From: Candidatus Multivoradales bacterium
GTDB taxonomy: Bacteria > Acidobacteriota > Thermoanaerobaculia > Multivoradales > Multivoraceae
Direction: 5' to 3'
Assembly (NCBI GenBank): GCA_965223325.1
Contig: CBDCWI010000002.1
Location: forward strand, 3,776,001-3,840,000
DNA: 64,000 bases
Below the pieces are notes generated by a model, which was not told where the DNA came from, made no database searches, and saw only the letters and a program-made list of their open reading frames with translations. Of the stretch, positions 43,346 to 55,331 are shown in pieces. Every line of letters begins with the position of its first letter. The first letter of the stretch is position 1. A program made the position numbers and the translations under genes.

Positions 43346-43642
43346 ATGCAACACGAACTCCACAGGGTCACGTCCTTCGCGATCATCGGGGATACCTCTC
43401 TCCGTGTCGTCTTCGACGACGGCTCGGAGCAGGAGATCGAGTTCTCACCCGTGCTTCACGGCGAGATCTACGGGCCGCTCGCGGATCCAGCGTTCTTCGC
43501 GCAGGTCCGCCTGGACGAAGAGGTTCACACGCTCGTCTGGCCCAACGGCGCTGACTTCGACCCTGCGACACTTCACAACTGGCCAAGTGTCGCCGCAGCG
43601 ATGGCCGAACTGGCGGAGTCCTGGGTTGCCGTGCCCAGCTGA
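43346..43642 (+). CDS. Cassette 18 DUF2442 (DhiA-like) antitoxin
   Basis: LRVVFDDG...PLADPAFFAQV...TLVWPNGADFDPATL. Confidence 0.88.
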   Translation: MQHELHRVTSFAIIGDTSLRVVFDDGSEQEIEFSPVLHGEIYGPLADPAFFAQVRLDEEVHTLVWPNGADFDPATLHNWPSVAAAMAELAESWVAVPS

Positions 43643-43653
43643 GCCGACACGCC

Positions 43654-43738
43654 GCAGAACAATCGGCTCCAGCAGACACGAACCCTTGGCTCGCTGCGCT
43701 CGCCCAGGCTTCGTGCTGCTCACCCTTGTCCGTTCGGC
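43654..43738 (+). other. attC site 18
   Basis: GCAGAAC...GTTCGGC. Confidence 0.9.
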
Positions 43739-43766
43739 GGCACGGGCCGCGCCCTAGAATGTCGTC

Positions 43767-44001
43767 GTGTACTTCGAGATTCTCGGCGAGATCAGCGCGG
43801 TCGAAGTCATCGCGGTTGGCAACTCCATCCGCGAGCTCGAACGGCTCGTGGAGGCCCACGGCGATGGGCGTTGGCGCAAACTGAAAGGCGTCGTTAACAG
43901 TCCGCCTTCACGACGAGTCTGTGTGCACTGCTGAGATACACTGGTACGAGGCTCACGGCATTGGACGTCGTGAGTTCAAGCTCAAACGCATCCTCCGCTA
44001 G
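43767..44001 (+). pseudogene. Cassette 19 small basic toxin-like protein, frameshifted near 43897
   Basis: MYFEILGEISAVEVIAVGNSIRELERL..HGDGRWRKLKGV, then (1-nt insertion) VRLHDESVCTAEIHWYEAHGIGRREFKLKRILR. Confidence 0.7.
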
Positions 44002-44004
44002 CCC

Positions 44005-44226
44005 ATGGAAACCGTCACCTACGTGCTCTGCGTGAACCGCGACGGCTACGAGGCGTCGCTAGAAACACGCAAGATCTACCGGTCCTTACCGGACCTTGAA
44101 GCGTCTCAGCGCTCGCTTATCAGGGTGATCGACGAGTCGGGTGAGGACTACCTTTTCCCGGTGAGCTTCTTCGTACCGATCGAGGTCCCCGAAGCCGCCC
44201 GGGAGGCCTTCGCAGAAGCGTCGTAG
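44005..44226 (+). CDS. Cassette 19 small acidic partner protein (putative antitoxin)
   Basis: YVLCVNRDGYEASLE.RKIY...IRVIDESGEDYLFP..FF; 3 bp after the upstream stop; paralog at 49228. Confidence 0.75.
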   Translation: METVTYVLCVNRDGYEASLETRKIYRSLPDLEASQRSLIRVIDESGEDYLFPVSFFVPIEVPEAAREAFAEAS

Positions 44227-44257
44227 GTGTGCCGCCGAACACCTATGAGGTCCCCTG

Positions 44258-44720
44258 ACGTCAAGCGGCAAACGTCTCTTAGCGGACGCGGTCCGTAACG
44301 GTTTTCGATCAGGTTTCGATATCTGACTTTGGTTTCAGAGTGGGTGCGAGGCGAAGCCTCTGCACCAAACACCTATTGGGCCTCTGCCCTCGCTTTCGCG
44401 ACGACTGCTGGCCTAGGCCAGCGGACCAGAAACACATCGGTGCCCTCGTACCGTCCGATTCAAACCGTGCTGGTCACGCCCGGGAGCGCGCCGGAGTTGG
44501 TTGCCTGGCTCGGGTGAGGGGCAGAGGTCGAGATCGACCGAATGCTGGAAGGTGAGTGGGAAGCCCCGTCGATTCAACCGGTCTGGCTGCCGGCTCTTTG
44601 TGTCTCAGGGCGCGTTGGGTGTCGATGCACCAGGAGCGGGTACTCCGATGAAGCGCCAAGGATGAGATCGGGCCGTGTGGCTCCAGTTAGGCGGAGGGCT
44701 CGAGGCTTCCGACTCGGAGA
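44258..44720 (-). ncRNA. Candidate bridge RNA / seekRNA in the IS 3' non-coding end
   Basis: About 480-bp hairpin-rich region downstream of the transposase, conserved in copies 2 and 3, containing junction-matching motifs AACACCTAT and TTCAA(A)C; RNA boundaries unknown. Confidence 0.6.
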
Positions 44721-45761
44721 TCAGGCGTTCATGAAGGTCGGGAGGTGGAAGGCTTGGTTGTTCTTGAGCATGAAGTAGACGGCGCGGCCCAGCTTGTGGC
44801 GGAGTCACGGCGTAGGCCTTGGTCTTGCCGTGCTTGCGCTTGAGGCGCTCGAGGAGTTTCTTGCCGTGATCCTGGCGCTGGGCGAAGAGCACGGCGGCTT
44901 CGGAGAAGGCCCACTTGAGGTGATGGTTGCCGATCTTGTGGCGACCGCTTCAGGTCCGCTTGCCCGCGGACTCGCGCTGTGGGCGGATCAGCCGGGCATA
45001 GCAAAGTGCTGCACGGTCGGAAATCGCGAGATGTCTTCGATCTCGTACAGCATCGTCATGCCGAGGATGGGACCGACGCCGGGGATCGACGTGAGGCGCG
45101 AGAGCACGGTGGGATCGTGGTCTTTGGCGAGTTCGCGGAGGTACTTCTCGACATCGGAGATGACCTCGTCGAAGGCCGCAATGAGCCGCTGGTTGGCGTC
45201 GATACTTTTCTTCGCTGACGGATCATCGAAGTGATGGAGGAGATCCGTGCGGTCCGACGGCCTGGCGATCCTGCCGAGGGTGGCGTCGCAGTTGTACTGA
45301 GTGTTCGAGGTGCGGATGTGGACGAAGAGCTCGGCGCGCTTGCGTGTGAAGTACTGGCGCCTGCGCAGGAGATCTCTCGCGGCTCTCATCTTCTTGGGAT
45401 AGGTGTAGGCCATTGGAAAGGTCCCGCCTCGCAGGAGGGCGGCGAGCTTGTAGGAATCGACCTTGTCGTTCTTGGCCTTGGCGCCATGGATTGCGCTCAT
45501 ATAGAGGGCATGGCCGAGGACGAATTCGATTCCCTCCTCGGCGCAGAGGTCGGCGAGCCAGTACCAGGAGAACATGCACTCGACACCCACGACCAGATCG
45601 TCTCGGAAGGGTTCGATGGCCTCGAGGAAGGCATCAGGCCGAGCGGGGACGTTTCGGTGATAGATCTTCTCGCCGTCCTCGTCGAGGACGCAGAGGTACA
45701 TCTTGCGAGCATGCAGATCGACACCGCAGGTGTGGCGATGACGGCGGTTGTAGAATCGCAT
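44721..45761 (-). pseudogene. IS110 (DEDD) recombinase, frameshifted near 45000 and 44806
   Basis: GVDLH, GVEC, KNDKVDS, SIPGVGP, ESAGK, KIGNHHLKWA split across frames. Confidence 0.88.
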
Positions 45762-45925
45762 CGAGGTCTCCTTGAAAAGAGTTTCTGTTTTACCGCTCGG
45801 AAGCTACCGCGTGGGTAGCTCGCCAGGGGACCTCAATGATCTTCAACCAGCTCCACAACGACCGGAACCCTCAGCCGCTTCGCGGCCTCCGGGTTCCGGC
45901 GTGTGAGCTTCGTCCGTTCGACAGC

Positions 45926-45954
45926 TTGAGGCGCCACTACAAAGTAGTTACAAT
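45926..45954 (+). promoter_or_regulatory. TA promoter (leaderless)
   Basis: TTGAGG-N17-TACAAT, overlapping the CTACA..TGTAG inverted repeat; GTG follows after a 6-nt gap. Confidence 0.7.
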
Positions 45955-45960
45955 GTAGCT

Positions 45961-46257
45961 GTGGCTGAGCTTCGGTTCGAGTGGGATGAATCCAAGGCGT
46001 CCTCCGACCAGAGGAAGCACGGCGTCTCCTTCGATGAGGCGTCGACGGTGTTCTTCGATGAGCACGGCCTGTTCATGGCCGATCCGGCTCACTCGGAGGA
46101 GGAAGATCGCTTCTTCATCCTCGGTCTCAGCCAGTCCCTGAGGCTTCTCGTGGTCTGTCACTGCTACCGCGAGAGCGAAGATCTCATACGTCTCATCAGC
46201 GCCCGCAAGGCGGACCGGTCTGAACGGCGCCAGTACAACCAACGGCTACCCAGATGA
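45961..46257 (+). CDS. brnT: Cassette 20 BrnT toxin (intact)
   Basis: FEWDESK...KHGVSFDEASTVF...HSEEEDRF...IRLISARKA. Confidence 0.9.
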   Translation: MAELRFEWDESKASSDQRKHGVSFDEASTVFFDEHGLFMADPAHSEEEDRFFILGLSQSLRLLVVCHCYRESEDLIRLISARKADRSERRQYNQRLPR

Positions 46258-46472
46258 AGAAGAACTACGACTTCTCCAAGGCCAAGAAGAACCCTTTCGC
46301 CAAACGCCTCAAGAGGCAGATCACGATTCGGATCGACGGTGGCACTCTCGAGTACTTCCGCCAGCTATCGGACGAGCTAGGTATTCCGTACCAGACCCTG
46401 ATCAACCTCTACCTCGGCGAATGTGCGAGGGACGAGAAGCGACCGTCGCTGAAGTGGGAAGCTACGGCGTGA
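46254..46472 (+). CDS. brnA: Cassette 20 BrnA/CopG-like antitoxin
   Basis: YDFSKAKKNPF..ITIRID...YF...GIPYQTLINLYL; ATGA overlap. Confidence 0.88.
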   Translation: MKKNYDFSKAKKNPFAKRLKRQITIRIDGGTLEYFRQLSDELGIPYQTLINLYLGECARDEKRPSLKWEATA

Positions 46473-46479
46473 CCAGGCT

Positions 46480-46553
46480 GTCGAACAACCACGTGCACTG
46501 GACACGAACCCGCGCTCGCTCGGGTCCGTGCCAGTGAGGTTCGTCCGTTGGGC
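46480..46553 (+). other. attC site 20
   Basis: GTCGAAC...GTTGGGC. Confidence 0.88.
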
Positions 46554-46575
46554 AGCCGGAGTGGGCCACGCGCGC

Positions 46576-46613
46576 ATAAGCCGTTGACTTAGTAGGTCAT
46601 TGGCTTATATGAT
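46576..46613 (+). promoter_or_regulatory. TA promoter with inverted-repeat operator
   Basis: TTGACT-N18-TATGAT, overlapping ATAAGCC...GGCTTAT. Confidence 0.75.
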
Positions 46614-46619
46614 CTTGGA

Positions 46620-46909
46620 GTGCTGTACGAGTGGGACGACGAGAAGAACCTCGCGAACCAGCGCTCGCACGGCATCTCGTTCGAGGAGGCCACAGACCTC
46701 TTCGAGTCAGGCGTCGAGTACCTCGTGATCTTCGACGCGGATCACTCGGTCGACGAGGATCGCTTCATCGCCATCGGCCCGATCCAGCGCGGCATCATCC
46801 TGGTCGTGTGGACGGAGCGTGACGAGGATGTGGTGAGAATCATCAGCGCCCGCCGGCAACCCGCCATGAGGCAGAGCGCTACCAGGAACGAATGCGAGAC
46901 GGGACATGA
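46620..46909 (+). pseudogene. Cassette 21 BrnT toxin, frameshifted near 46856
   Basis: YEWDDEKNLAN..HGISFEEA...RIISARR; restoring one G gives ATRHEAERY...stop overlapping the antitoxin ATG. Confidence 0.75.
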
Positions 46910-47193
46910 ACATCCAGGAACTCTCGGAGGCGCAGTTCAAGTCTGCGATCCCCGCTTCACAACGCCGACGACTCATGAAGGGCAAGTTCGAGAGCGGGGC
47001 CGACGTTTCAGCCCTTCGGCGTTTCGTGGGCCTTTCTCAGGTTCGCTTTTCTCGGGCCCTGGGCATCAGTGTGCACACGCTCCGCAACTGGGAACAGGAC
47101 CGGCGCAAACCAGAGGGCCCGGCGCTGGCCCTGCTTCGCATCGCCGCTCGTCATCCGAGAATCATTCGCGAGAACGTCGAAGAGGCAGCGTGA
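46906..47193 (+). CDS. Cassette 21 XRE-HTH antitoxin
   Basis: LSQVRFSRALGISVHTLRNWEQDRRKPEGPALALL. Confidence 0.88.
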   Translation: MNIQELSEAQFKSAIPASQRRRLMKGKFESGADVSALRRFVGLSQVRFSRALGISVHTLRNWEQDRRKPEGPALALLRIAARHPRIIRENVEEAA

Positions 47194-47201
47194 GGCCGGC
47201 T

Positions 47202-47284
47202 GCCCAACACGCGGCTCCACGCGACTCGTACCCGTGCTCGCTTCGCTCGCTCGGGAAGTCGCCTGTGATGAAAGTCCGTTCGGC
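47202..47284 (+). other. attC site 21
   Basis: GCCCAAC...GTTCGGC. Confidence 0.9.
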
Positions 47285-47314
47285 GGCATCCGGCCCTGCT
47301 GGTAGAATTGCGAC

Positions 47315-47539
47315 ATGAAGTTGGTCACCGGTACTGTCGTCGATGGCAAGGTCACCCTCCCTGAAGGCGTGTTCGAAGAAGGAAGCGCCGTCGCCGTACT
47401 CGGCGGCGATCCAGCTGAGTCTGTTCCGCTCACTGCAGCCGAGGAAGCAGGGCTCAGCGAGTCGCTAAAGGACATTCGCGAGGGGCGCTACGTCGAGGGT
47501 TCCGATCTCGTCGCTCGCCTCAAGTCTCGCGGTCGTTGA
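47315..47539 (+). CDS. Cassette 22 putative antitoxin (paralog of 41804)
   Basis: MKLVTGTVVDGKV...LKDIREGRYV. Confidence 0.75.
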   Translation: MKLVTGTVVDGKVTLPEGVFEEGSAVAVLGGDPAESVPLTAAEEAGLSESLKDIREGRYVEGSDLVARLKSRGR

Positions 47540-47841
47540 GCTTCCGGCTCATCGTCGCAGCCCGAGCGGAAGCGCAGATCGAAGCTGCGGCCGAGTGGTG
47601 GTTCGAGAACCGTCCAGGTGCACCGGTCCTGCTCTCGGAAGAAGTGGAGCGAGCGTTCCTCACCATAAGTCGCTTCCCGAGTGCTGGCGAGGCGATAGGC
47701 CACCGGCGCATTGCCGGCCTTCACCGGATTCTTCTCTCTCGGATCTCGTATCACCTGTACTACTCAGTGAACGATGCCGAGGCCACCGTCGAAGTGCTTG
47801 CGATGTGGCACACCAGCAGACGGAGAGGCCCTGCGCTGTGA
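47536..47841 (+). CDS. Cassette 22 RelE/ParE toxin (paralog of 42023)
   Basis: AEAQIEAAAEWW..NR...YHLYY...VEVLAMWHTSR. Confidence 0.85.
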   Translation: MSFRLIVAARAEAQIEAAAEWWFENRPGAPVLLSEEVERAFLTISRFPSAGEAIGHRRIAGLHRILLSRISYHLYYSVNDAEATVEVLAMWHTSRRRGPAL

Positions 47842-47847
47842 CACGCC

Positions 47848-47932
47848 GCCGAACAACGTGTTCCAGCAGAAGCGAACCCTGGGCTCGCTACGCTCGCTCA
47901 GGTCTCTCGCTGCTGCACTTGGTCCGTTATGC
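47848..47932 (+). other. attC site 22
   Basis: GCCGAAC...GTTATGC. Confidence 0.9.
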
Positions 47933-47959
47933 GGCTCGAGCGCCGATGGGGTACGACAA

Positions 47960-48934
47960 ATGATTGCGAATCTCGAGCACCGGCGGAAGCAGGTCTTAGA
48001 GACGGTACGAGCGCTGGTTATCACTAGCTGCGTTTGTTCGCTGACAGCGTTGCTTCTTGGTGCGCAGGCCTGCAAATCACAACCGGATCAGCGACCAAGG
48101 TCAGCCGAGTCGCCGCATGAACGGCAGGTCGATCTATTGAATGTTCGTTGGATGCACGGTGCTCAAGACTGTGACGCTGTACGGACAGATCCTGAATACA
48201 TTGAATGGCAGCAAGTTCGGTATCAGGTCAACACGTACATATTCCGTCAGAACAAGTGCTCAAACTACGAGGCGCCTTTCGTGTATCTACTCATAGGCAC
48301 AGATAGGGCACTGCTGATAGACACTGGCGCAACCATCGAAGGCGGTGCGAGTCTGCTCGGTACAGTCAGAGATGTTACCGACGCGCCGCTGATCGTCGCA
48401 CACTCTCATGGTCACGGGGATCATACGCAAGGTGACGGCGCCTTCTCGAGCGCAGAAAACGCCGCGGTCGTAGGCTTAGGGGCGGAGGCCGTGCAGGAGT
48501 TCTTCGGATTCGAGAATTGGCCAAATGATCCAGCTCATCTTGAGCTAGGCAATCGAAGGATAGAACTCTTGCCGATCCCTGGCCACAAAGATGATGACGT
48601 AGCCCTTTATGATCCGACATCGCTGTTCCTGATAACGGGCGACACGTTGTATCCAGGTCGATTGTACGTCGGCGACTGGGGGGACTTTCGTGCCAGCATC
48701 GCAAGGCTGAACGAGTGGATAGATAACAAACCCGTTGCGTACATCATGGGCACTCATATCGAGATGACTGCAACGCCAGACGTCGACTATCCAATTGGAA
48801 CCACTTATCAACCGAATGAGCGCCATTTACCCCTTTCGACTTCTGACATTGCGGTACTACATGAAACTCTCGTCACCATGGAAGTCCCCGAGAGGACATA
48901 TTTGGGCAGTTTCGTTCTCTGGCCTCGCCAATAG
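47960..48934 (+). CDS. Cassette 23 MBL-fold metallo-hydrolase (probable lipoprotein); its attC is missing
   Basis: LIDTG, HSHGDH, PGH, TGDTLYPG, GTHIE; lipobox-like AQAC. Confidence 0.85.
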   Translation: MIANLEHRRKQVLETVRALVITSCVCSLTALLLGAQACKSQPDQRPRSAESPHERQVDLLNVRWMHGAQDCDAVRTDPEYIEWQQVRYQVNTYIFRQNKCSNYEAPFVYLLIGTDRALLIDTGATIEGGASLLGTVRDVTDAPLIVAHSHGHGDHTQGDGAFSSAENAAVVGLGAEAVQEFFGFENWPNDPAHLELGNRRIELLPIPGHKDDDVALYDPTSLFLITGDTLYPGRLYVGDWGDFRASIARLNEWIDNKPVAYIMGTHIEMTATPDVDYPIGTTYQPNERHLPLSTSDIAVLHETLVTMEVPERTYLGSFVLWPRQ

Positions 48935-48938
48935 ATGG

Positions 48939-49018
48939 CAGCAGGTTCGGAACCGGAACGTTGGAATATGTTCTCGCCGTCCTCGTCGAGGACGCAGAGG
49001 TACATCTTGCGAGTATGC
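48939..49018 (-). pseudogene. Fragment of the IS110 recombinase 5' region
   Basis: 48971-49018 matches 45667-45714 at 47/48 nt. Confidence 0.8.
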
Positions 49019-49223
49019 TGGCGTAGAGGTGATAGCGATCGGCAACGCGATTCGCGAGTTGGAGCGTCTGGTCGAAGTGCACGGCGACGGTCGTTGGCGC
49101 AAGCTCAAGGGTGTAGCCAGCGTCAGGCTGCAAGATGATTCGATGTGCTCCGCTGAGATACACCGGTAGGAGGCTCACGGCATCGGCCGCCGCGAGTTCA
49201 AGCTGAAACGGCTCTTCGACTAA
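49019..49223 (+). pseudogene. Second copy of the cassette 19 toxin-like gene, 5'-truncated with an internal stop
   Basis: VEVIAIGNAIRELERL...AEIH-R-stop(49167)-EAHGIGRREFKLKRLFD. Confidence 0.75.
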
Positions 49224-49227
49224 ACCT

Positions 49228-49509
49228 ATGGAACAAGCCACCTTCGTCCTCTGCGTCAACCGCGATGGCTACGAGACCTCACTAGAGATCAGGAGGATCT
49301 ACCGGTCCCTCGCTGATCCCGCTGCCGCTGAGAGATCACTCATCCGTGTCGTCGATGAGACCGGCGAGGACTACCTCTTTCCCGCCGACTTCTTCGTTCC
49401 GATCGAGGTTCCACCGCCGCTCAACATCTGGCTGCACTGGATGAGAACCCGCGCTCGCTTCACTCGCTCAGGTCTCGTGCAGCTGAGCTTCGACCATTGT
49501 GTGTCGTAG
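49228..49509 (+). CDS. Second copy of the cassette 19 partner protein (tail runs through attC)
   Basis: FVLCVNRDGYETSLE...VVDETGEDYLFP. Confidence 0.7.
   Translation: MEQATFVLCVNRDGYETSLEIRRIYRSLADPAAAERSLIRVVDETGEDYLFPADFFVPIEVPPPLNIWLHWMRTRARFTRSGLVQLSFDHCVS
49419..49502 (+). other. attC site 24 (degenerate R' ATTGTGT)
   Basis: GCTCAAC...central hairpin...ATTGTGT. Confidence 0.7.
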
Positions 49510-49515
49510 AAAAGG

Positions 49516-49941
49516 ATGAGGCTTCTCTTGCGTGGCGCGTCTCTTGGCCTGTTGGCGTTTATCGCGGTGGTTTATTCGCTTGGCGCTGTTGCAGTCGGGC
49601 TGGCACCGATATTCGAATTCGGTGCCGCCAAGGTTCGTGCGGAGCCGATGACCGCGATTTTCCTCGCGATCGTGAACGCCTCGGTGGCGACCGTTGCTGG
49701 AGTAATGTTCGCATCGCTGTTTCGCCGCAACCTGTGGGAGTTCATCGTCTTGTACTGGTCCTCAGGGGCGCTGATGCTTTGGTTTGTCGCGCCAGGGGTA
49801 TCAGCTTCGACCGTCGTCGCCTTGGCCCTTTCGCTCGCCCTAGGTGGCTGGCTGCTTCACAGGGAGCCGCACTGGCTCGGGTTCGACGCCGTGGGAACGC
49901 AGGAACGACACGCGCCACACAACACCTATGAGGTCCCCTGA
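49516..49941 (+). CDS. Cassette 25 hypothetical 4-TM protein
   Basis: Hydrophobic segments; ORF ends inside the IS end. Confidence 0.65.
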   Translation: MRLLLRGASLGLLAFIAVVYSLGAVAVGLAPIFEFGAAKVRAEPMTAIFLAIVNASVATVAGVMFASLFRRNLWEFIVLYWSSGALMLWFVAPGVSASTVVALALSLALGGWLLHREPHWLGFDAVGTQERHAPHNTYEVP

Positions 49942-51364
49942 CGTCAAGAGGCAAACGTCTCCTAGCGGACGAGGTCCGTGGCGGTTTTCGATCAGTCTCG
50001 AATTCTGACTTTGGTTTCAGAGTGGGTGCGAGGCGAAGCCTCTGCACCAAACACCTATTGGGCCTCTGTCCTCGCTATCGCGACGACTGCTGGCCTAGGC
50101 CAGCGGACCAGAAACACATCGGTGCCCTCGTACCGTCCGATTCAAACCGTGCTGGTCACGCCCGGGAGCGCGCCGGAGTTGGTTGCCTGGCTCGGGTGAG
50201 GGGCAGAGGTCGAGATCGACCGAATGCTGGAAGGTGAGTGGGAAGCCTCGTCCATTCAAACGCTGTGGCTGCCGGCGCTGTGTCCCAGGGCGCGTTGGGT
50301 GTCGATGCACCAGGAGCCGGTGCTCCGATGAAGCGCCAAGGATGGGATCTGGCCGTGTGGCTCCAGTTAGGCGGAGGGCTCGAGGCTTTCCGACTCGAGA
50401 TCAGGCGTTTATGAATGTCGGGAGGTGGAAGGCTTCGTTGTTCTTCAGCATGAAGTAAACGGCGCGGCCGAGCTTGTGACGCAGAACAGCGTAGGCCTTG
50501 GTCTTGCCGTGCTTGCGCTTGAGGCGATCGAGCAGCTTCTTGCCGTGAGCCTGGCGCTGAGCGAAGAGCACGGCGGCCTCAGAGAAGGCCCACTTGAGAT
50601 GGTGGTTGCCGATCTTGTGGCCGCCGCTGCCGGTTCGCTTGCCTGCGGACTCATGCTGCGGACGAATCAGCCGGGCGTAGGAGGCGAATTGCTGCACGGT
50701 GGGAAACCTCGAGATGTCTTCGATCTCGTAGAGCATCGTCATGCCGAGGATAGGATCGACGCCGGGAATCGAAGTGAGGCGCGACAGTACGCTGGGATCG
50801 TGATCCTTGGCCAGAGCGAAGAGATGCCTCTCGACATCCGAGATCACCTCGTCGAAGGCCGCGATGAGTCGCTGGTTGGCGTCGATGCTCTTCCTAGCCG
50901 AGGGGTCGTCGAAGTGATGGAGAAGATCTGTGCGGTCCGACGGTCTGGCGATCCTGCCGAGCGACGTGTCGCAGTTGTACTGGGTGTTCGACGTACGGAT
51001 GTGGACGAAGAGCTGGGCGCGCTGGCGAGTGAAGTACTGGCGCCTGCGCAGCAGATCCCGCGCTGCACGCATCTTCTTAGGGTAGGTGTAGGCCATAGGA
51101 AAGGTGCCACCTCGCAGCAGCGCTGCCAGCTTGTAGGAATCGACCTTGTCGTTCTTGGCCTTGGCTCCGTGGATCGCGCTCATGTACAAGGCATGGCCGA
51201 GAACGAATTCGATTCCCTCTTCGGCGCAGAGGTCGGCGAGCCAATACCAGGAAAACATGCACTCGACGCCCACGACCAGATCGTTTCGGAAGGATTCGAT
51301 GGCCTCGAGGAAGGCATCAGGCCGAGCGGGGATGTTTCGGTGGTAGATCTTCTCGCCTGATCTT
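49925..51364 (-). mobile_element. IS1111-type element in attC 25 (copy 2; transposase start and one IR deleted)
   Basis: Same junctions (ACACAA-CA-CCTATGAGGTCCCCTG ... TGATCTT-CA-ACC); attC remainder at 51365-51441. Confidence 0.9.
50401..51357 (-). pseudogene. IS110 recombinase lacking about 30 N-terminal residues (including the GVDLH Asp)
   Basis: Open frame from GEKIYHRN to PTFINA; the sequence upstream jumps directly to the IS end. Confidence 0.85.
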
Positions 51365-51463
51365 CAACCGGGTGAACTCGACATGAACACGCGTCCGCTT
51401 TGCTCCCGCGCGTCCATGCGGGTTACCCTTGTCCGTTCGGCGGCGAGAACTAGGCCCCAGACG

Positions 51464-51778
51464 ATGTACTACTACACGATAGAAAGCCCGGCCTTCGAGC
51501 CTCATGAGGTAGTCGAGGCCTGCATCGAGTCCGGCGCGACATCCGTTCTTCTTTCTGAGGCCGCCTCGGCCGGAGATTTCATGAAGCTGGAAACGGGTGT
51601 TGCCGGCGAACTGCTGCACAAGCTCTCGGTCTACGGGATTCGCCTGGCCGGCGTCGTTAGCGCCGCGGGGCCTCATCCTCCTCACTTCGAGGAGTTCGTC
51701 CGGGAAGCCAACCGCGGCGAACAGTGGCGATTCTTCTCCAACAGAAGCGATGCTGTGGCATGGCTCGAAAGCGAGTAG
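51464..51778 (+). CDS. Cassette 26 DUF4180-like protein
   Basis: DFMKLETGVAGELLHKLSVYGIRLA...FVREANRG...F...AVAWL. Confidence 0.8.
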   Translation: MYYYTIESPAFEPHEVVEACIESGATSVLLSEAASAGDFMKLETGVAGELLHKLSVYGIRLAGVVSAAGPHPPHFEEFVREANRGEQWRFFSNRSDAVAWLESE

Positions 51779-51792
51779 CGCGTGCCCTCGCC

Positions 51793-51876
51793 GCCGAACA
51801 ACTGGCTCCAGGCCGGCTCGCACCCGCGCTCGCTTCGCTCGCTCGGGCACGAGCGGCTCACCCTTGTCTGTCGTAT
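51793..51876 (+). other. attC site 26 (degenerate R' GTCGTAT)
   Basis: GCCGAAC...GTCGTAT. Confidence 0.75.
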
Positions 51877-51891
51877 CGCCAGGAGGTACAG

Positions 51892-52206
51892 GTGATCGAT
51901 ACCGAAGCGATGGAGTGGCTCCAGCCATGGGAGAAGGTCGAGGGTTCGGCTGCAAACCTAGAGCGTCAGTTGAATCGCGAGGTCACCGAGGGCCATCCGC
52001 TCTTCGGCCTCAGCGTCACCGCTCTTGCCCGACGCCGCGACACTGACGATGTCGTCTTTGCTGTCGGTGTGCCGACGAGGCGCTTGGCTGCTGTCCACCT
52101 AACGTGGGCCGGTCGCCAAGAGCCGCCCTTTCCAGAGACCGATCTGTTCGAAACGTTCGAGGCGTTCCGAGCCGCTGTCATGGAGCCAGGTCATGCGGAG
52201 GCCTAG
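51892..52206 (+). CDS. Cassette 27 hypothetical protein
   Basis: RBS AGGAGG; PW...REVTEGHPL...ARRRDTDDVVF...VHLTW. Confidence 0.75.
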   Translation: MIDTEAMEWLQPWEKVEGSAANLERQLNREVTEGHPLFGLSVTALARRRDTDDVVFAVGVPTRRLAAVHLTWAGRQEPPFPETDLFETFEAFRAAVMEPGHAEA

Positions 52207-52213
52207 CATGGCG

Positions 52214-52296
52214 GTACAACAACCACACTCACTGGACGAGAACCTGCGGCCGCTCCGCGGCCACCGGCCCTCGCCAGTGATGTTCGTCCGTTGGGT
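52214..52296 (+). other. attC site 27
   Basis: GTACAAC...GTTGGGT. Confidence 0.85.
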
Positions 52297-52825
52297 GCCT
52301 AAGGCCCTCTCACTCCTCGTCGTCGTTCTGGCGTTCTTGTTGTCTTGCTCGGTCGTGGAGCGCCCATCCCCGCTCTTCGAGGGCCCACTGTTGACGCTGA
52401 GTCACTATCCGGGAATGGGGCACACGGTGGGGCGTTGGTACAAGCTCTTCCACCCGCGATCGAGAATGCCAGAGGACTGGAGCTTCCAGCTCTATCCGGA
52501 CGCCCGGGTCGAGATGTCTAGGCGTACCTGCAAACATGAGCATGTCTGGAGCGAAGCCCATCGGCTGTCGAGCAAGGACTTCGAAAGGCTCCTGGCACTC
52601 GTTGAGCCACTTCGTGAGCTCGAGCCCGAGACTTATCGAATCTGCTGCGACGATGTTCCCGGAGATATCGTGAAGTTGCATGACATGGGCGCACCCTTCG
52701 AGGTCCAGTTGGAGTACCAGGCGGGCCATCCGGCAGCGGGTAGCGGGCAGCGGGCGATTGCCGACGTCTTCGCCTTTGTAAGATCAAGGTATGAACCCCC
52801 TACGTGGCCAATCTGCCGTTGGTAG
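52295..52825 (+). CDS. Cassette 28 hypothetical lipoprotein
   Basis: Lipobox LLSC after a hydrophobic stretch. Confidence 0.65.
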   Translation: MPKALSLLVVVLAFLLSCSVVERPSPLFEGPLLTLSHYPGMGHTVGRWYKLFHPRSRMPEDWSFQLYPDARVEMSRRTCKHEHVWSEAHRLSSKDFERLLALVEPLRELEPETYRICCDDVPGDIVKLHDMGAPFEVQLEYQAGHPAAGSGQRAIADVFAFVRSRYEPPTWPICRW

Positions 52826-52832
52826 CGCGGCT

Positions 52833-52917
52833 CCACAACAACCAGCTTCACAACGACCAGAACCCTCAGCCGCTGCGCGGCCTCCGGGTTTCGGCGTGTG
52901 AGGTTCGTCCGTAGGGT
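52833..52917 (+). other. attC site 28 (degenerate R' GTAGGGT)
   Basis: CCACAAC...; body similar to attC 7 and 19. Confidence 0.75.
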
Positions 52918-53557
52918 GGCCAAGGGCGCGTCGCCCGACGTGCATGTCTTTCGCAAAGAAGAGACGGTCAGGATGTACTTCCATTGCCCTGTCTACAGCG
53001 GTGGTCCCGTCAACAGTATCGGGAGCTACAGGCAGGCAACCTTCGCGGCAACATCTAGGGATGGGCTGACCTTCGAGGCGAACCCGGAGGTGTTGGGTAA
53101 CTCGTACTTTCGAGTCTGGCAGCACGACAAGTTCTTCTACGCCGTCGGCATGCCTGGGGTGCTGTATCGATCTCGAGATGGCCTAACCGACTTCGAGGAG
53201 GGGCCCACGCTTTTTGACAAGAGAATGAGGCACTCCGCCGTTATGAAGAAGGGTCAGAAGCTGCTGATCTTCTACTCGAACAAGGGCGACAACCCTGAGG
53301 CCATTTTGTTGTCTACGATCGATCTGCGTGGTGATTGGTCAGAGTGGGTTGCTACGAGCCCGCAGACGCTTCTTCAGCCCGAGCTTCCGTGGGAGGGAGC
53401 GCACCTCCCTCTGATTGCTTCCTCTGACGGAGCGGCGAAGGGGTCCGTGAATCAGCTGCGAGATCCTGCCATCTTCGTTGAAGATGCTCGCTCCTACTTG
53501 CTCTACTCAGTCGCTGGGGAACGGGGAATCGCGATAGCAGAACTTGTATGGGACTAG
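52916..53557 (+). CDS. Cassette 29 glycoside-hydrolase-like beta-propeller protein (probably N-terminally truncated)
   Basis: ASPDVHV..MYFH, SRDGLTF repeats, MRHSAV, QLRDPAIF, LLYSVAGE. Confidence 0.6.
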   Translation: MAKGASPDVHVFRKEETVRMYFHCPVYSGGPVNSIGSYRQATFAATSRDGLTFEANPEVLGNSYFRVWQHDKFFYAVGMPGVLYRSRDGLTDFEEGPTLFDKRMRHSAVMKKGQKLLIFYSNKGDNPEAILLSTIDLRGDWSEWVATSPQTLLQPELPWEGAHLPLIASSDGAAKGSVNQLRDPAIFVEDARSYLLYSVAGERGIAIAELVWD

Positions 53558-53573
53558 AACTGACAGCAAGGTC

Positions 53574-53658
53574 GCCCAACAAGGCCGATGAACGCGGGCA
53601 TCAACACGTGCTCGTTCGTTCGCCCGTTTGCTGCCGGTTGTCGGCAGATTCGTTGTGC
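53574..53658 (+). other. attC site 29
   Basis: GCCCAAC...GTTGTGC, divergent body. Confidence 0.7.
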
Positions 53659-53804
53659 GGCTACTGCAGGGGCGTCGTTTGCGCTCTCGGTTGATCTTCT
53701 TGAGGTCCTGGCGCAGAACTTGGGCGACGAGCCTCCCGCTCTGTCTTCGCTTCGCCTTTGGGTCGGCGGGCGAAGGCCGGTGATCCATGAAGCGCCGCCG
53801 AACC

Positions 53805-53986
53805 CCTATGAGGTCCCTGACGTCAAGCGGCAGACGTCCTCCTAGCGGACGCGGTCCGTAGGGTTTTCGATCAGTCTCGAGTCTCCGACTCTGGTTTCAG
53901 AGTGGGTGCGAGGCGAAGCCTCTGCACCCAACACCTATTGGGCCTCGGCCCTCGCTTTCGCGACGACTGCTGGCTTGGGCCAGCGG
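53805..53986 (-). mobile_element. IS1111-type element remnant (copy 3, 3' end only) in the terminal attC 30
   Basis: GCCGAAC (53797-53803) followed by CCTATGAGGTCCCTGACGTCAAG..., about 180 bp similar to copies 1 and 2. Confidence 0.85.
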
Positions 53987-54107
53987 GCTGGGTTTGATCC
54001 CGCCTGGTGAAGCGGCGCCGAAGGTACTGGGAGCAGACGAATCCAGGGGCGGTTGCCAGGTCGCTCTTGAGGGAAGCGCCTCCTAAACCGTAGGTTCGCA
54101 GGACTCG

Positions 54108-55331
54108 CTAGCCAAACGGGAACGTCGGAAGCGTCAGGACCTCGCAGTCGCCGGCGGTTTGTGGAGCGGCGTGTGCCCTCACCCGCACGATGGCGTTGCC
54201 GCGGCCGTAGGCGCGCAGGTCGTGGGAACCGGCGGGTCTGTGTGGCGTGACCTCGAGGACACCTGCATTGGCCTCGGCGGTTGCGGATAGGAAGCGGTCG
54301 CGGTCGCGTGCGCCGGGGAGCTTCGTCCCTTCGGCGAGAACCCCTCCGAGGGCGCCCTGCCAGAAGCTGTCGGTAAGACCCTGCAGTTGGTTGAGGGCGG
54401 GGCGGACGAAGAGCCAGAAGGTGATCATCGCCGAGGCTGGGTTGCCCGGGAGGCCAAAGACCCAGCCGCCGGCGTGAGTCGCCGCGACGAGTGGCTTCCC
54501 GGGTTGGATGGCGACTGCGTCGAAGAGAACCTCGCAACCGCATCCGCTGAGGACGTCTTCAACCAGGTCGTAGTCGCCCGCTGAGACGCCGCCGGTGAGC
54601 AGAAGAACGTCGCTTTCGAGCCCGGTTTCGATTCGCGCCTTCAGATCAGCGAGATCGTCGCGTGCGATGCCGAGCAGCTCGACGGATTCCGCGTAGCGGC
54701 CGGCAGCGGTCTCGAAGAAGGCGCTGTGGGAGTCGCGCAGCTGGCCCGGGCCGGGTTCCTCGTCGGCCGCTACGACTTCATCGCCGGTGGTCAACATCGC
54801 GACCTTTGGCCTCCGGGTGACGTCTACTTCGGCGATGCCCTGCGACGCGAGCACTCCCAACGCCGCGTCGGTGAGGAGCGTTCCGGGTTCGAACAGGGGT
54901 CCGCCAGCGGCAACCACTTCGGCCCGTCGGCGAATGTGTGAGCCGGCCGTCTCCACAGCATCGAAGCGCACGCGCTCCTGGCCGGCGTCGGTGAGCTCGA
55001 AGGGCACGACGCGATCGGCGGTTTCGGGGACTGGGGCGCCGGTCATGATGCGAACTGCGCTCCCGGGCGCCATTGCGTACCCTGGTGGGTCACCGGCAGC
55101 GATCACGGCGTCCACCGTTCGCACCTCTCCGGCTGCCGGTTCACCCTTGTCCTGGGCCAGCGCGAGTGCGTAGCCATCCATCGCCGAGACGTCGTGGTGG
55201 GGCACGTCGGTGGTCGCGGCGACGGCTTGCGCGGTCACCCTCCCGGCGGCGTCCCGACGCCGGACGGTTTCGGCGGCAAGCGGTTCAAGGTGCTCGGCGA
55301 GGCGATTCCAGGCTTCACGAGGGTGGAACAT
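54108..55331 (-). CDS. moeA: Molybdopterin molybdotransferase MoeA
   Basis: SAMDGYA, RIMTGAPVP, TTGDE, TGGVSAGDYD, QPGKP, GLPGNP. Confidence 0.95.
   Translation of the reverse strand: MFHPREAWNRLAEHLEPLAAETVRRRDAAGRVTAQAVAATTDVPHHDVSAMDGYALALAQDKGEPAAGEVRTVDAVIAAGDPPGYAMAPGSAVRIMTGAPVPETADRVVPFELTDAGQERVRFDAVETAGSHIRRRAEVVAAGGPLFEPGTLLTDAALGVLASQGIAEVDVTRRPKVAMLTTGDEVVAADEEPGPGQLRDSHSAFFETAAGRYAESVELLGIARDDLADLKARIETGLESDVLLLTGGVSAGDYDLVEDVLSGCGCEVLFDAVAIQPGKPLVAATHAGGWVFGLPGNPASAMITFWLFVRPALNQLQGLTDSFWQGALGGVLAEGTKLPGARDRDRFLSATAEANAGVLEVTPHRPAGSHDLRAYGRGNAIVRVRAHAAPQTAGDCEVLTLPTFPFG

Follow-up and report, generated by a model that had tools for sequence, protein, structure and literature searches.

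The question raised by this locus is how an insertion sequence reads the integron attC sites in which it lands, and whether two loops of one guide RNA share that task. The stretch in question, here called the window, comprises 64,000 nucleotides (nt) of contig CBDCWI010000002.1 from a Candidatus Multivoradales bacterium, and the element is a decayed insertion sequence (IS) of the IS110 family, IS1111 group, on its minus strand. The original prediction, made from the letters alone, held that the non-coding end of the element encodes a bridge RNA, or seekRNA, with one donor guide and two target-binding loops, such that a single RNA-guided recombinase could cover a degenerate family of attC sites. 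Comparison with related elements makes it probable that this is an IS1111 element that inserts at the R'' box of attC, with a tail RNA that carries a target loop, a second loop and a donor guide. The second loop does not seem to choose targets or to widen the target range.

Guides in the non-coding tail

The features on which the argument turns are given here in window coordinates.

44242-45843, minus strand: IS copy 1, 1602 bp without the core, with its left end at 45843 and its right end at 44242
44721-45761, minus strand: recombinase gene with the Pfam domains DEDD_Tnp_IS110 and Transposase_20, broken in copy 1
44242-44720, minus strand: non-coding right end, 479 nt, predicted to encode a bridge/seekRNA in the minus-strand sense
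44554-44717, minus strand: loop 1, the putative target-binding loop, with a lower stem of 44710-44700 with 44572-44559 and a long variable upper part between its guides
44686-44694, minus strand: putative right-target guide of loop 1, RNA CCGCCUAAC, which would pair with GTTAGGCGG
44573-44581, minus strand: RNA CCGGU-UG-AA (CCGGUUG-AA), the putative loop 1 guide for the left target with its core and handshake
44425-44526, minus strand: loop 2, an internal loop built like loop 1, with 5' strand CAACCAAC (44503-44496) and 3' strand CGGUU-UG-AA (44467-44459)
44368-44376, minus strand: RNA AUAGG-UG-UU, the putative guide for the donor (right end) with its core and handshake; the right junction at 44238-44246 has the same letters
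44323-44336, minus strand: conserved motif GAAACCAAAGUCAG, from the alignment

Relatives were gathered by a contig scan of one genome per species, which gave 80 loci (45-73% protein identity), the majority in uncultured Desulfobacterota, Planctomycetota, Acidobacteriota and Gammaproteobacteria, and by a metagenome scan, which gave 79 further loci and a total of more than 150. Most of them occupy attC-like sites with ..GTCCGC..TTG to the left and TTAGGC.. to the right. Independent right ends were set in the metagenome loci by TTGAC, 17-18 nt and [TG]G, together with an inverted repeat shared with the left end. Such ends were found in 38 of the 79 loci, of which five were dropped (L153, L162 and L169 repeat L016, L018 and L020, L174 repeats L173, and L164 has an ambiguous register), leaving 33. 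These 33 new insertions, with 44 of the first set less L007, whose flank is cut, make up the 76 insertions used below; L023 was dropped as a repeat of L020. The copies from an Olavius symbiont (L042-L045 and L069) were not counted as separate insertions, because their left and right flanks are identical and the element lies inside a larger repeated unit. Extra copies were also sought in the genomes of L049, L048, L001, L005 and L061; that of L049 has one copy, and that of L048 has four places with the same flank, which are not independent.

Aligned with MAFFT, the tails of 54 relatives have one layout in common, at lengths of 440-850 nt across the clade. A stem right after the stop codon is followed by ..YCUAAC-UGG, a long variable insert and NNNNNUUG-AU-UGG, which closes the stem of loop 1. 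Loop 2 comes next, with CUGCCCCUCACCCGAGCC..YNAAC-UGG, a short hairpin and NNUUUG-AA-UGGGACGGCACGAGGG. The donor part consists of UUUCUAGG, at least one hairpin, CCUCG-AUAAG-UG-UU-UGG and then a hairpin, and the tail ends with GAAACCCAAGUCAG, TTGAC, the subterminal repeat and the end of the element. This is the bridge/seekRNA layout that had been predicted downstream of the IS110/IS1111 recombinase gene, and it is likely that the tail encodes an IS1111-type RNA with three stations, namely a target loop, a second loop and a donor guide.

The 9-mer AACACCTAT occurs five times in the window (44238, 44368, 49921, 50050 and 53930), where shuffling leads one to expect 0.05 and none of 100 shuffles reaches five; two of the sites form the junctions of copies 1 and 2, the other three being internal. 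In a first-pass search of the relatives, the terminal 5-mer was found inside the tail in 47 of 76 loci (48 rows, of which L004 is spurious), and most loci without such a match end too early. This count is not a test, because the search itself required the match. Among the 33 elements with independently set ends, 30 have the same 5-mer inside the tail as at the terminus and the other three are one base off, with 9.8 expected by permutation (standard deviation (sd) 2.3, maximum 19) and none of 5000 permutations reaching 30. Five types of guide are matched in this way: ATAAG, ATAGA, ATATG, ATAGG and ATATA. The agreement strongly supports AUAGG-UG-UU at 44376-44368 as the donor guide, the role first proposed for it. 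Its handshake (the handshake dinucleotides were defined by Hiraizumi et al. 2026, PMC13626964) is UU, the TT that opens every right flank in this genome, and it matches in full in two of four distant elements; within the clade it cannot covary with the right flank, because the flank TT is nearly invariant.

The original prediction divided the target-reading part of the tail into two modules, with motifs at 44573-79 (TTCAACC), 44613-18 (CGTTGG), 44459-66 (TTCAAACC) and 44496-503 (GTTGGTTG), all of which, like the junctions and repeats, lie where it placed them. It also held one module to be variable and the other constant, as proved to be the case: module A reads TTCAACCGG in copy 1 and TTCAAACGC in copy 2, and module B is the same in all six own-genome copies that cover it. 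The left guide of loop 1, in module A, is CCGGUUG, GCGUUUG or GUGGUUG in the copies of this genome and is the only strongly variable short stretch of the tail among them. Over the 76 insertions, the left guide matches the eight flank bases beside the core in 286 cells, with 198.3 expected (sd 9.9; 0/3000 shuffles), which bears out the reading of GGUUG-AA as a left-target guide with its handshake. In 71 of 76 insertions, the left end opens with the same dinucleotide as the handshake (AT with AT in 63, AA with AA in 6, AC with AC in 2), where AA goes with AAGAT.. or AAACT.. left ends and AC with ACACT.. left ends. The handshake also fits the left end in all four of the distant elements L088, L089, L091 and L093, at 22-34% identity (AG, AT, AA and TT).

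The right guide had been placed elsewhere. The CCAAC(G) at 44618 was offered as the partner strand of module A, yet the closest relative, L001, has CCGAGC there, and the conserved partner is CCGCCUAAC, some 70 nt further upstream in the RNA. Within it, the conserved GCCUAAC at 44692-44686 appears to be the real 5' guide of the module; ..YCUAAC-UGG is kept in all 53 readable rows of the 54-row alignment, and the own-genome copies read GTTNGGCGG at this guide. In element sense, the complement of the guide, GTTAGGCGG, corresponds to the attC R'' box in reverse complement, and it may be compared with own-genome right flanks such as G-TTCGGCGG, G-TTGGGCGG and G-TTAGGCGG. The right guide matches flank bases 3-9 in 258 cells, with 223.4 expected (0/3000).

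Three relatives illustrate joint changes of guide and site. Both L049 and L071 have a GG core, in loop 1 as well as at the two junctions, and the donor guide of L049 shares it. L049 is a close relative of L048, and its new guides, CAAAAC and GGUC-GG, suit a site that is not attC-like, GGCC-GG-TTTTGAA. In L129, the right-target guide gains a C after AAC, the donor handshake is GU and the junction is moved by one base, which together amount to a joint register shift. The comparison as a whole supports loop 1 as the target-binding loop, with its 5' strand corrected to CCGCCUAAC.

For claims of structure, only comparative stems from RNAalifold were used. The fold of the whole region (493 nt) is only mildly better than shuffles (z = -2.42) and unreliable as a structure, and single-sequence folds of the loops, that of loop 2 alone included, are no better than shuffles. 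In the RNAalifold result, loop 1 is enclosed by one 9-bp stem and loop 2 by two short ones. Pairing in the loop 1 stem reaches 82.4%, versus 47.6% when shuffled, with 120 double-change cells versus 40.6 (0/500; 34 sequences, as L017, L022, L030, L046 and L060 of the 39 rows were left out for their long inserts), and pairing falls to 34-46% when the partner is shifted by 1-3 columns. The loop 2 stems are 87.0% paired versus 69.4%, with a covariation of 0.437 versus 0.165 (0/500; 39 sequences). The guide-like strands of both loops fall outside the predicted pairs, such that the motifs would lie in internal loops, as expected of guides, and not in stems.

The second loop and competing explanations

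On comparative grounds, loop 2 is real, conserved, old and target-like near the core. It is found in 53 of the 54 aligned tails (L069 is masked with N on the 5' side), and three elements of a distant clade, with very different targets, have a similar second loop. Position by position, loop 2 fits only at right-flank bases 1-4 (73, 73, 53 and 52 of 76) and at the core-adjacent left base (55/76), and its total matches to the flanks are 212 on the left versus 194.4 expected (117/3000) and 188 on the right versus 178.2 (376/3000). The cells in which the two loops differ are more telling. On the left, the flank equals loop 1 in 147 such cells (92.4 expected; 0/3000) and loop 2 in 73 (87.9 expected, a count that 2950 of 3000 shuffles equal or exceed); on the right, it equals loop 1 in 123 (110.3 expected; 118/3000) and loop 2 in 53 (65.2 expected). 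The first insertion set alone gives the same picture. Guide-target covariation in homologues is therefore found only in part: the loop 1 guides follow the flanks, whereas the variable positions of loop 2 do not. Two further roles were rejected, that of a donor-binding loop, given that neither strand matches the left or the right end, and that of a reader of the attC R' box, by eye on the attCs of the window.

In the proposed mechanism, in which stations 1 and 3 are backed by the comparison of relatives, the 5' strand of station 1, CCGCCUAAC, would pair, as far as the G of the core, with one of the two DNA strands in the right flank, and the 3' strand, CCGGU-UG, would carry the sequence of the left flank and core, with the next AA serving as a handshake to the first two bases of the left end. 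In station 3, AUAGG-UG-UU would combine the element's last five bases with the core and with a handshake to the dinucleotide that opens the right flank. As for station 2, it would be a paralogue of the target loop, with strands that fit only the invariant centre of the site (UUUG / YNAAC). It may hold a second target-derived copy for the second recombinase dimer, for example the donor-junction flank during excision, together with the donor guide. That loop 2 would serve the second half of the complex as such a paralogue is suggested by a compact IS5075-like element, described below, because the donor guide of that element lies in its second internal loop. A bolder version, and a rather doubtful one, is that the clade, and probably the whole IS1111 group, has three DNA-reading stations, in which loop 2 would read the invariant centre TTTG/TTAR, either as a class-level sensor, by which the complex would dock on any attC ahead of the flank check by loop 1, or as a holder of the target-derived flank at the donor junction during excision.

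Several points weigh against the proposed mechanism as a whole. The role of station 2 as a second target-derived copy for a second dimer is itself tentative. A search for a left-end guide (RDG) gave only scattered matches of 6-8 nt with no common column, nor does the conserved UUUCUAG motif, which lies opposite the donor guide, track the left end; because no left-end guide was found, it is probably the protein that recognises this end, by way of the 11-bp subterminal repeats. An Rfam scan of 43500-55000 gave no match at E up to 1. In five of the 76 insertions the loop 1 handshake is AA with an AT.. left end; by lineage, the handshake fits in all three lineages with non-AT left ends, and AA occurs in three AT lineages. 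The permutation figures overstate significance, because related elements are not independent samples, and activity in this genome is without support, given that all four long copies are defective. The left strands of loops 1 and 2 are alike within an element (205 versus 159.2, sd 9.8; 0/5000; 75 lineages), and in the distant clade (L088, L089 and L091) the core-proximal bases of loop 2 change with the target, as in the pairs GAC..UUC-UG with ..ATC-TG-TCC.., GGUU..UUC-UG with ..ACC-TG-ACC.. and UAU-UG with ..TAT-TG... Because of this likeness and these changes, some DNA-reading role of loop 2 on target-like sequence is possible.

The two observations on loop 2 also bear on the explanation first put forward, in which two independently programmable target loops allow one recombinase to cover two attC classes (CAACC and CAAAC spacers; CUAAC and CCAAC boxes). 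The loops share their build and their target-like strands, and four of the seven occupied sites in this genome have G at the third right-flank base, which suits the CCAAC of loop 2 over the CUAAC of loop 1. The differing cells, however, fit loop 2 below chance on both sides and loop 1 above it, and the totals for loop 2 are weak. The AA after GGUUUG had been taken as a handshake to the left end; the position is mostly AA or AC and follows the left end in just 13 of 76 insertions. The core of loop 2 is TG in 75 of 76 (TC in L173), including both elements, L049 and L071, with GG in loop 1 and at the junctions, and in L049 loop 2 is still CUAAC despite the retargeting of loop 1 to GG-TTTTGAA. A second selecting loop is thus quite improbable. 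A better, if still unlikely, alternative is that loop 2 never pairs with DNA and is a duplicated protein-binding scaffold for the second dimer, with a likeness to the target inherited from the duplication. This would account for variable positions that do not follow the flanks and for the GAGCC.. and ..UGG conserved beside the guides in both loops, as protein contacts would be, and it agrees with the report that the short, 82-nt seekRNA suffices for movement of ISEc11 (PMC11187229, in the text excerpted). It does not readily explain why the YNAAC and UUUG strands are single-stranded and near-invariant over the range of 45-73% protein identity, or why the strands of the distant ATGGG clade differ in step with their other target, and an ancient duplication would not preserve the likeness of the left strands within each element.

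The simplest objection of all, that the 9-mer and the modules are due to chance or to another purpose, such as a terminator or the remnants of older insertions, and that there is no guide RNA, can point to the mild fold score of the whole region, the unremarkable fold of loop 2 alone and the empty Rfam scan. It is close to refuted by the count of the 9-mer, far over chance, by guides that covary with ends and flanks in 76 insertions, by the covarying stems and by the experimental demonstration of a like RNA for ISKpn4, ISPst6 and ISEc11 in the excerpted text of PMC11187229.

The element, its copies and its decay

The surroundings of the element are a cassette array read on the plus strand, with attCs that open with GCCGAAC-like R'' boxes and close with GTTCGGC-like R' boxes, and the flanks of the element are R'' boxes of these attCs. 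The genome (6.69 Mb, two contigs) was searched with the 493-nt tail, and seven places match, three of which are the copies in the window. In these places the insertion point is the end of the attC R'' box, and the core is CA (TG in element sense), or CC in copy 3. Beyond copy 1, the features are as follows.

44247-44257, unstranded: right subterminal inverted repeat GAGGTCCCCTG, with its partner CAGGGGACCTC at 45824-45834
49925-51364, minus strand: IS copy 2, in which a deletion has taken the left end and the recombinase N-terminus, apart from the final 7 nt
53805-53985, minus strand: IS copy 3, with about 180 nt of the right end left, homology that stops near 53985 and the junction AA-CC-CCTAT
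48959-49018, minus strand: stray recombinase N-terminal coding piece, 60 nt, 90% identical to 45655-45714
C2:4167708-4169310, C2:4398832-4400502, C2:4171104-4171598 and C1:2124989-2125287: further own-genome copies or fragments outside the window

The CA core stands on either side of copy 1, at 44240-41 and 45844-45, and a paralogous unoccupied attC at 52839 reads ..CTCCACAA-CA-ACCAGC... In element sense, the left junction is ..GGT-TG-AAGATCATT[GAGGTCCCCTG].. and the right junction is ..[CAGGGGACCTC]ATAGG-TG-TTCGGCGG. The right flanks in this genome read G-TTNNGC.. in the six places with an aligned right flank, and the left flanks read ..TTG in the four places with an aligned left flank. A single 2-nt core, TG or GG, is common to the junctions of the own-genome copies and to the 76 insertions of relatives. 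The AA-CC of copy 3 is not due to damage, as was originally supposed: among the latter, 14 of 76 have GG/CC at their right junction and 7 of 76 at their left one. In the sense of the cassettes, the site is likely to be ..RYYYAA-CA-A.., with insertion in one orientation at the R'' box.

The pattern described for the IS1111 group (subterminal repeats, a 2-nt core and a long right end; PMC11187229 and PMC11208160, in the text excerpted) is present in the element, which has subterminal repeats in the range of 7-17 bp, a longer right end, insertion specific for site and orientation, and a 2-nt core beyond which the target is not duplicated. The GAGGTCCCCTG/CAGGGGACCTC repeats are 11 bp long and are inset 5 nt from the right end and 9 nt from the left end, and the right end, downstream of the gene, is 479 nt, compared to 82 nt for the left end upstream of it.

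Pfam searches with the open pieces of copies 1 and 2 gave PF01548 (E = 2e-14) and PF02371 (E = 5.7e-19). None of the four long copies in this genome has an intact recombinase gene, and each is broken by a different defect: c1 differs from the other copies by a 4-nt gap and a 1-nt insertion, c2 has a 5' deletion, cA a stop at codon 191 and cC a +1 frameshift near residue 249, after which homology resumes in the next frame. The family in this genome is therefore inactive or dying, and the variety of defects fits a family that is dying out in the array. Among the relatives, an open reading frame (ORF) of 330-365 amino acids is found in 36 of 76. Logan contigs of four DNA runs over 43900-46200 were fragmentary and contained no circle junction, only the unoccupied paralogous attC and variants from other copies. 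A genome-wide census of attC patterns was dropped, because the first pattern gave 0 sites in the window and a looser one gave 1748 in the genome, which is noise.

Some further observations concern the element and its neighbourhood. The stray piece at 48959-49018 lies between cassettes and is probably the footprint of a fourth insertion. After the occupied attC, 45961-46472 on the plus strand contains two small overlapping ORFs of 98 and 72 amino acids, which resemble a toxin-antitoxin pair by their arrangement. TTGAC stands 17-18 nt ahead of the core throughout the clade, and TTGACG at 44264-44259 is a possible -35 element of a junction promoter of the ISEc11 type, given that joining of the ends would set TTGAC at promoter distance from the left-end TG-A(T/A)..T. 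In L002, L028 and L043 the sequence past the right end is the same as that after the internal donor guide (in L002, GATAAGTGTTTGGAGCAGAATTCG), and L002 has a second subterminal repeat about 150 nt beyond its right end; this looks like recombination of the right end with the DNA of the donor guide, leading to tandem partial right ends. In L096 and L098, from the genome of L048, the left end is only about 530 nt before loop 1 and most of the recombinase gene is deleted. Both keep the two ends and the RNA region and may be non-autonomous derivatives.

Relation to known IS1111 elements

The bridge/seekRNA of attC-targeting IS1111 elements is already known as a kind. According to the excerpted text of Siddiquee et al. 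2024 (PMC11187229), the attC-targeting ISKpn4 and ISPst6, as well as ISEc11 and ISPa11, produce two RNA forms from the non-coding DNA downstream of the gene, one short (82-96 nt) and one long (148-172 nt), and for the attC-targeting elements a short (82-86 nt) and a long (148-151 nt) RNA co-purify with the transposase. In the short form, which suffices for ISEc11 to move, the match to the top strand lies 5' of that to the bottom strand, an order that is also found here; the role of the long form is stated there as not established. With ISKpn4, ISPst6 and ISPa25 the element shares the IS1111 group, attC targets, a guide RNA downstream of the recombinase gene and the order of the strand matches. 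The insertion point of those three, however, is between ..CTTGAA and CGAATTGTTAG (Table 1 of the review PMC13604230, in its excerpted text), whereas the point used by the clade of the window is displaced by 5-7 bp to the right and falls on the TG of ..TTG-TTAG, inside the R'' box. Because of this distance, the clade is a distinct, R''-box lineage of attC-targeting elements. The lengths differ too, with a long RNA of about 150 nt there and a non-coding tail of 440-850 nt here.

The long seekRNA of ISEc11 and ISPa11 is described as two hairpins with internal loops, according to the legend to Extended Data Fig. 6 of 10.1101/2024.04.26.591405, and this form resembles loops 1 and 2, with the target matches placed in the short form. 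Durrant et al. 2024 (PMC11208160, in the text excerpted) predicted that 93% of IS1111 elements carry a bridge RNA in their right end, often with donor-binding bases in a multi-loop, which recalls the position of the donor guide here between a branched stem and a hairpin. As described for IS621 in the excerpts of that paper and of PMC13626964, guides read both target strands and the donor around a 2-nt core and handshakes read the partner DNA, as is proposed here. The element differs from IS621 in its reversed strand order, its long subterminal repeats, a left-end guide that was not found, and three stations in place of two loops. Within the set of relatives, L093, an IS5075/IS4321-like element from a Klebsiella plasmid, has a similar target loop, GUUUAUUC .. 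GCUU-UG-UU, in which the handshake UU corresponds to the left-end TT, and a donor guide AUCUAUG. Its tail, by contrast, measures only about 270 nt, with the donor guide inside the second internal loop itself, whereas in the clade of the window the second loop has a target-like strand and the donor guide is further downstream. A search of the literature text found nothing on a second target-like loop or on its absent covariation, with figures and supplements, in which such a loop may be drawn, outside the search.

The window adds to the known attC-targeting elements a large environmental clade that hits the R'' box itself, and one in which covariation alone is enough to identify the target and donor guides as well as the handshake bases. 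The pair L048 and L049, as well as L129, would serve as natural examples of reprogramming. Given that RNA-guided IS110/IS1111 recombinases are in development as tools for genome editing, natural guide layouts such as these set rules for design. The result for loop 2 narrows the experimental questions on the long seekRNA, and the three-station reading, if true, would give a function to its unexplained second hairpin. For integron biology, the element represents one more IS lineage that colonises chromosomal cassette arrays and then decays within them.

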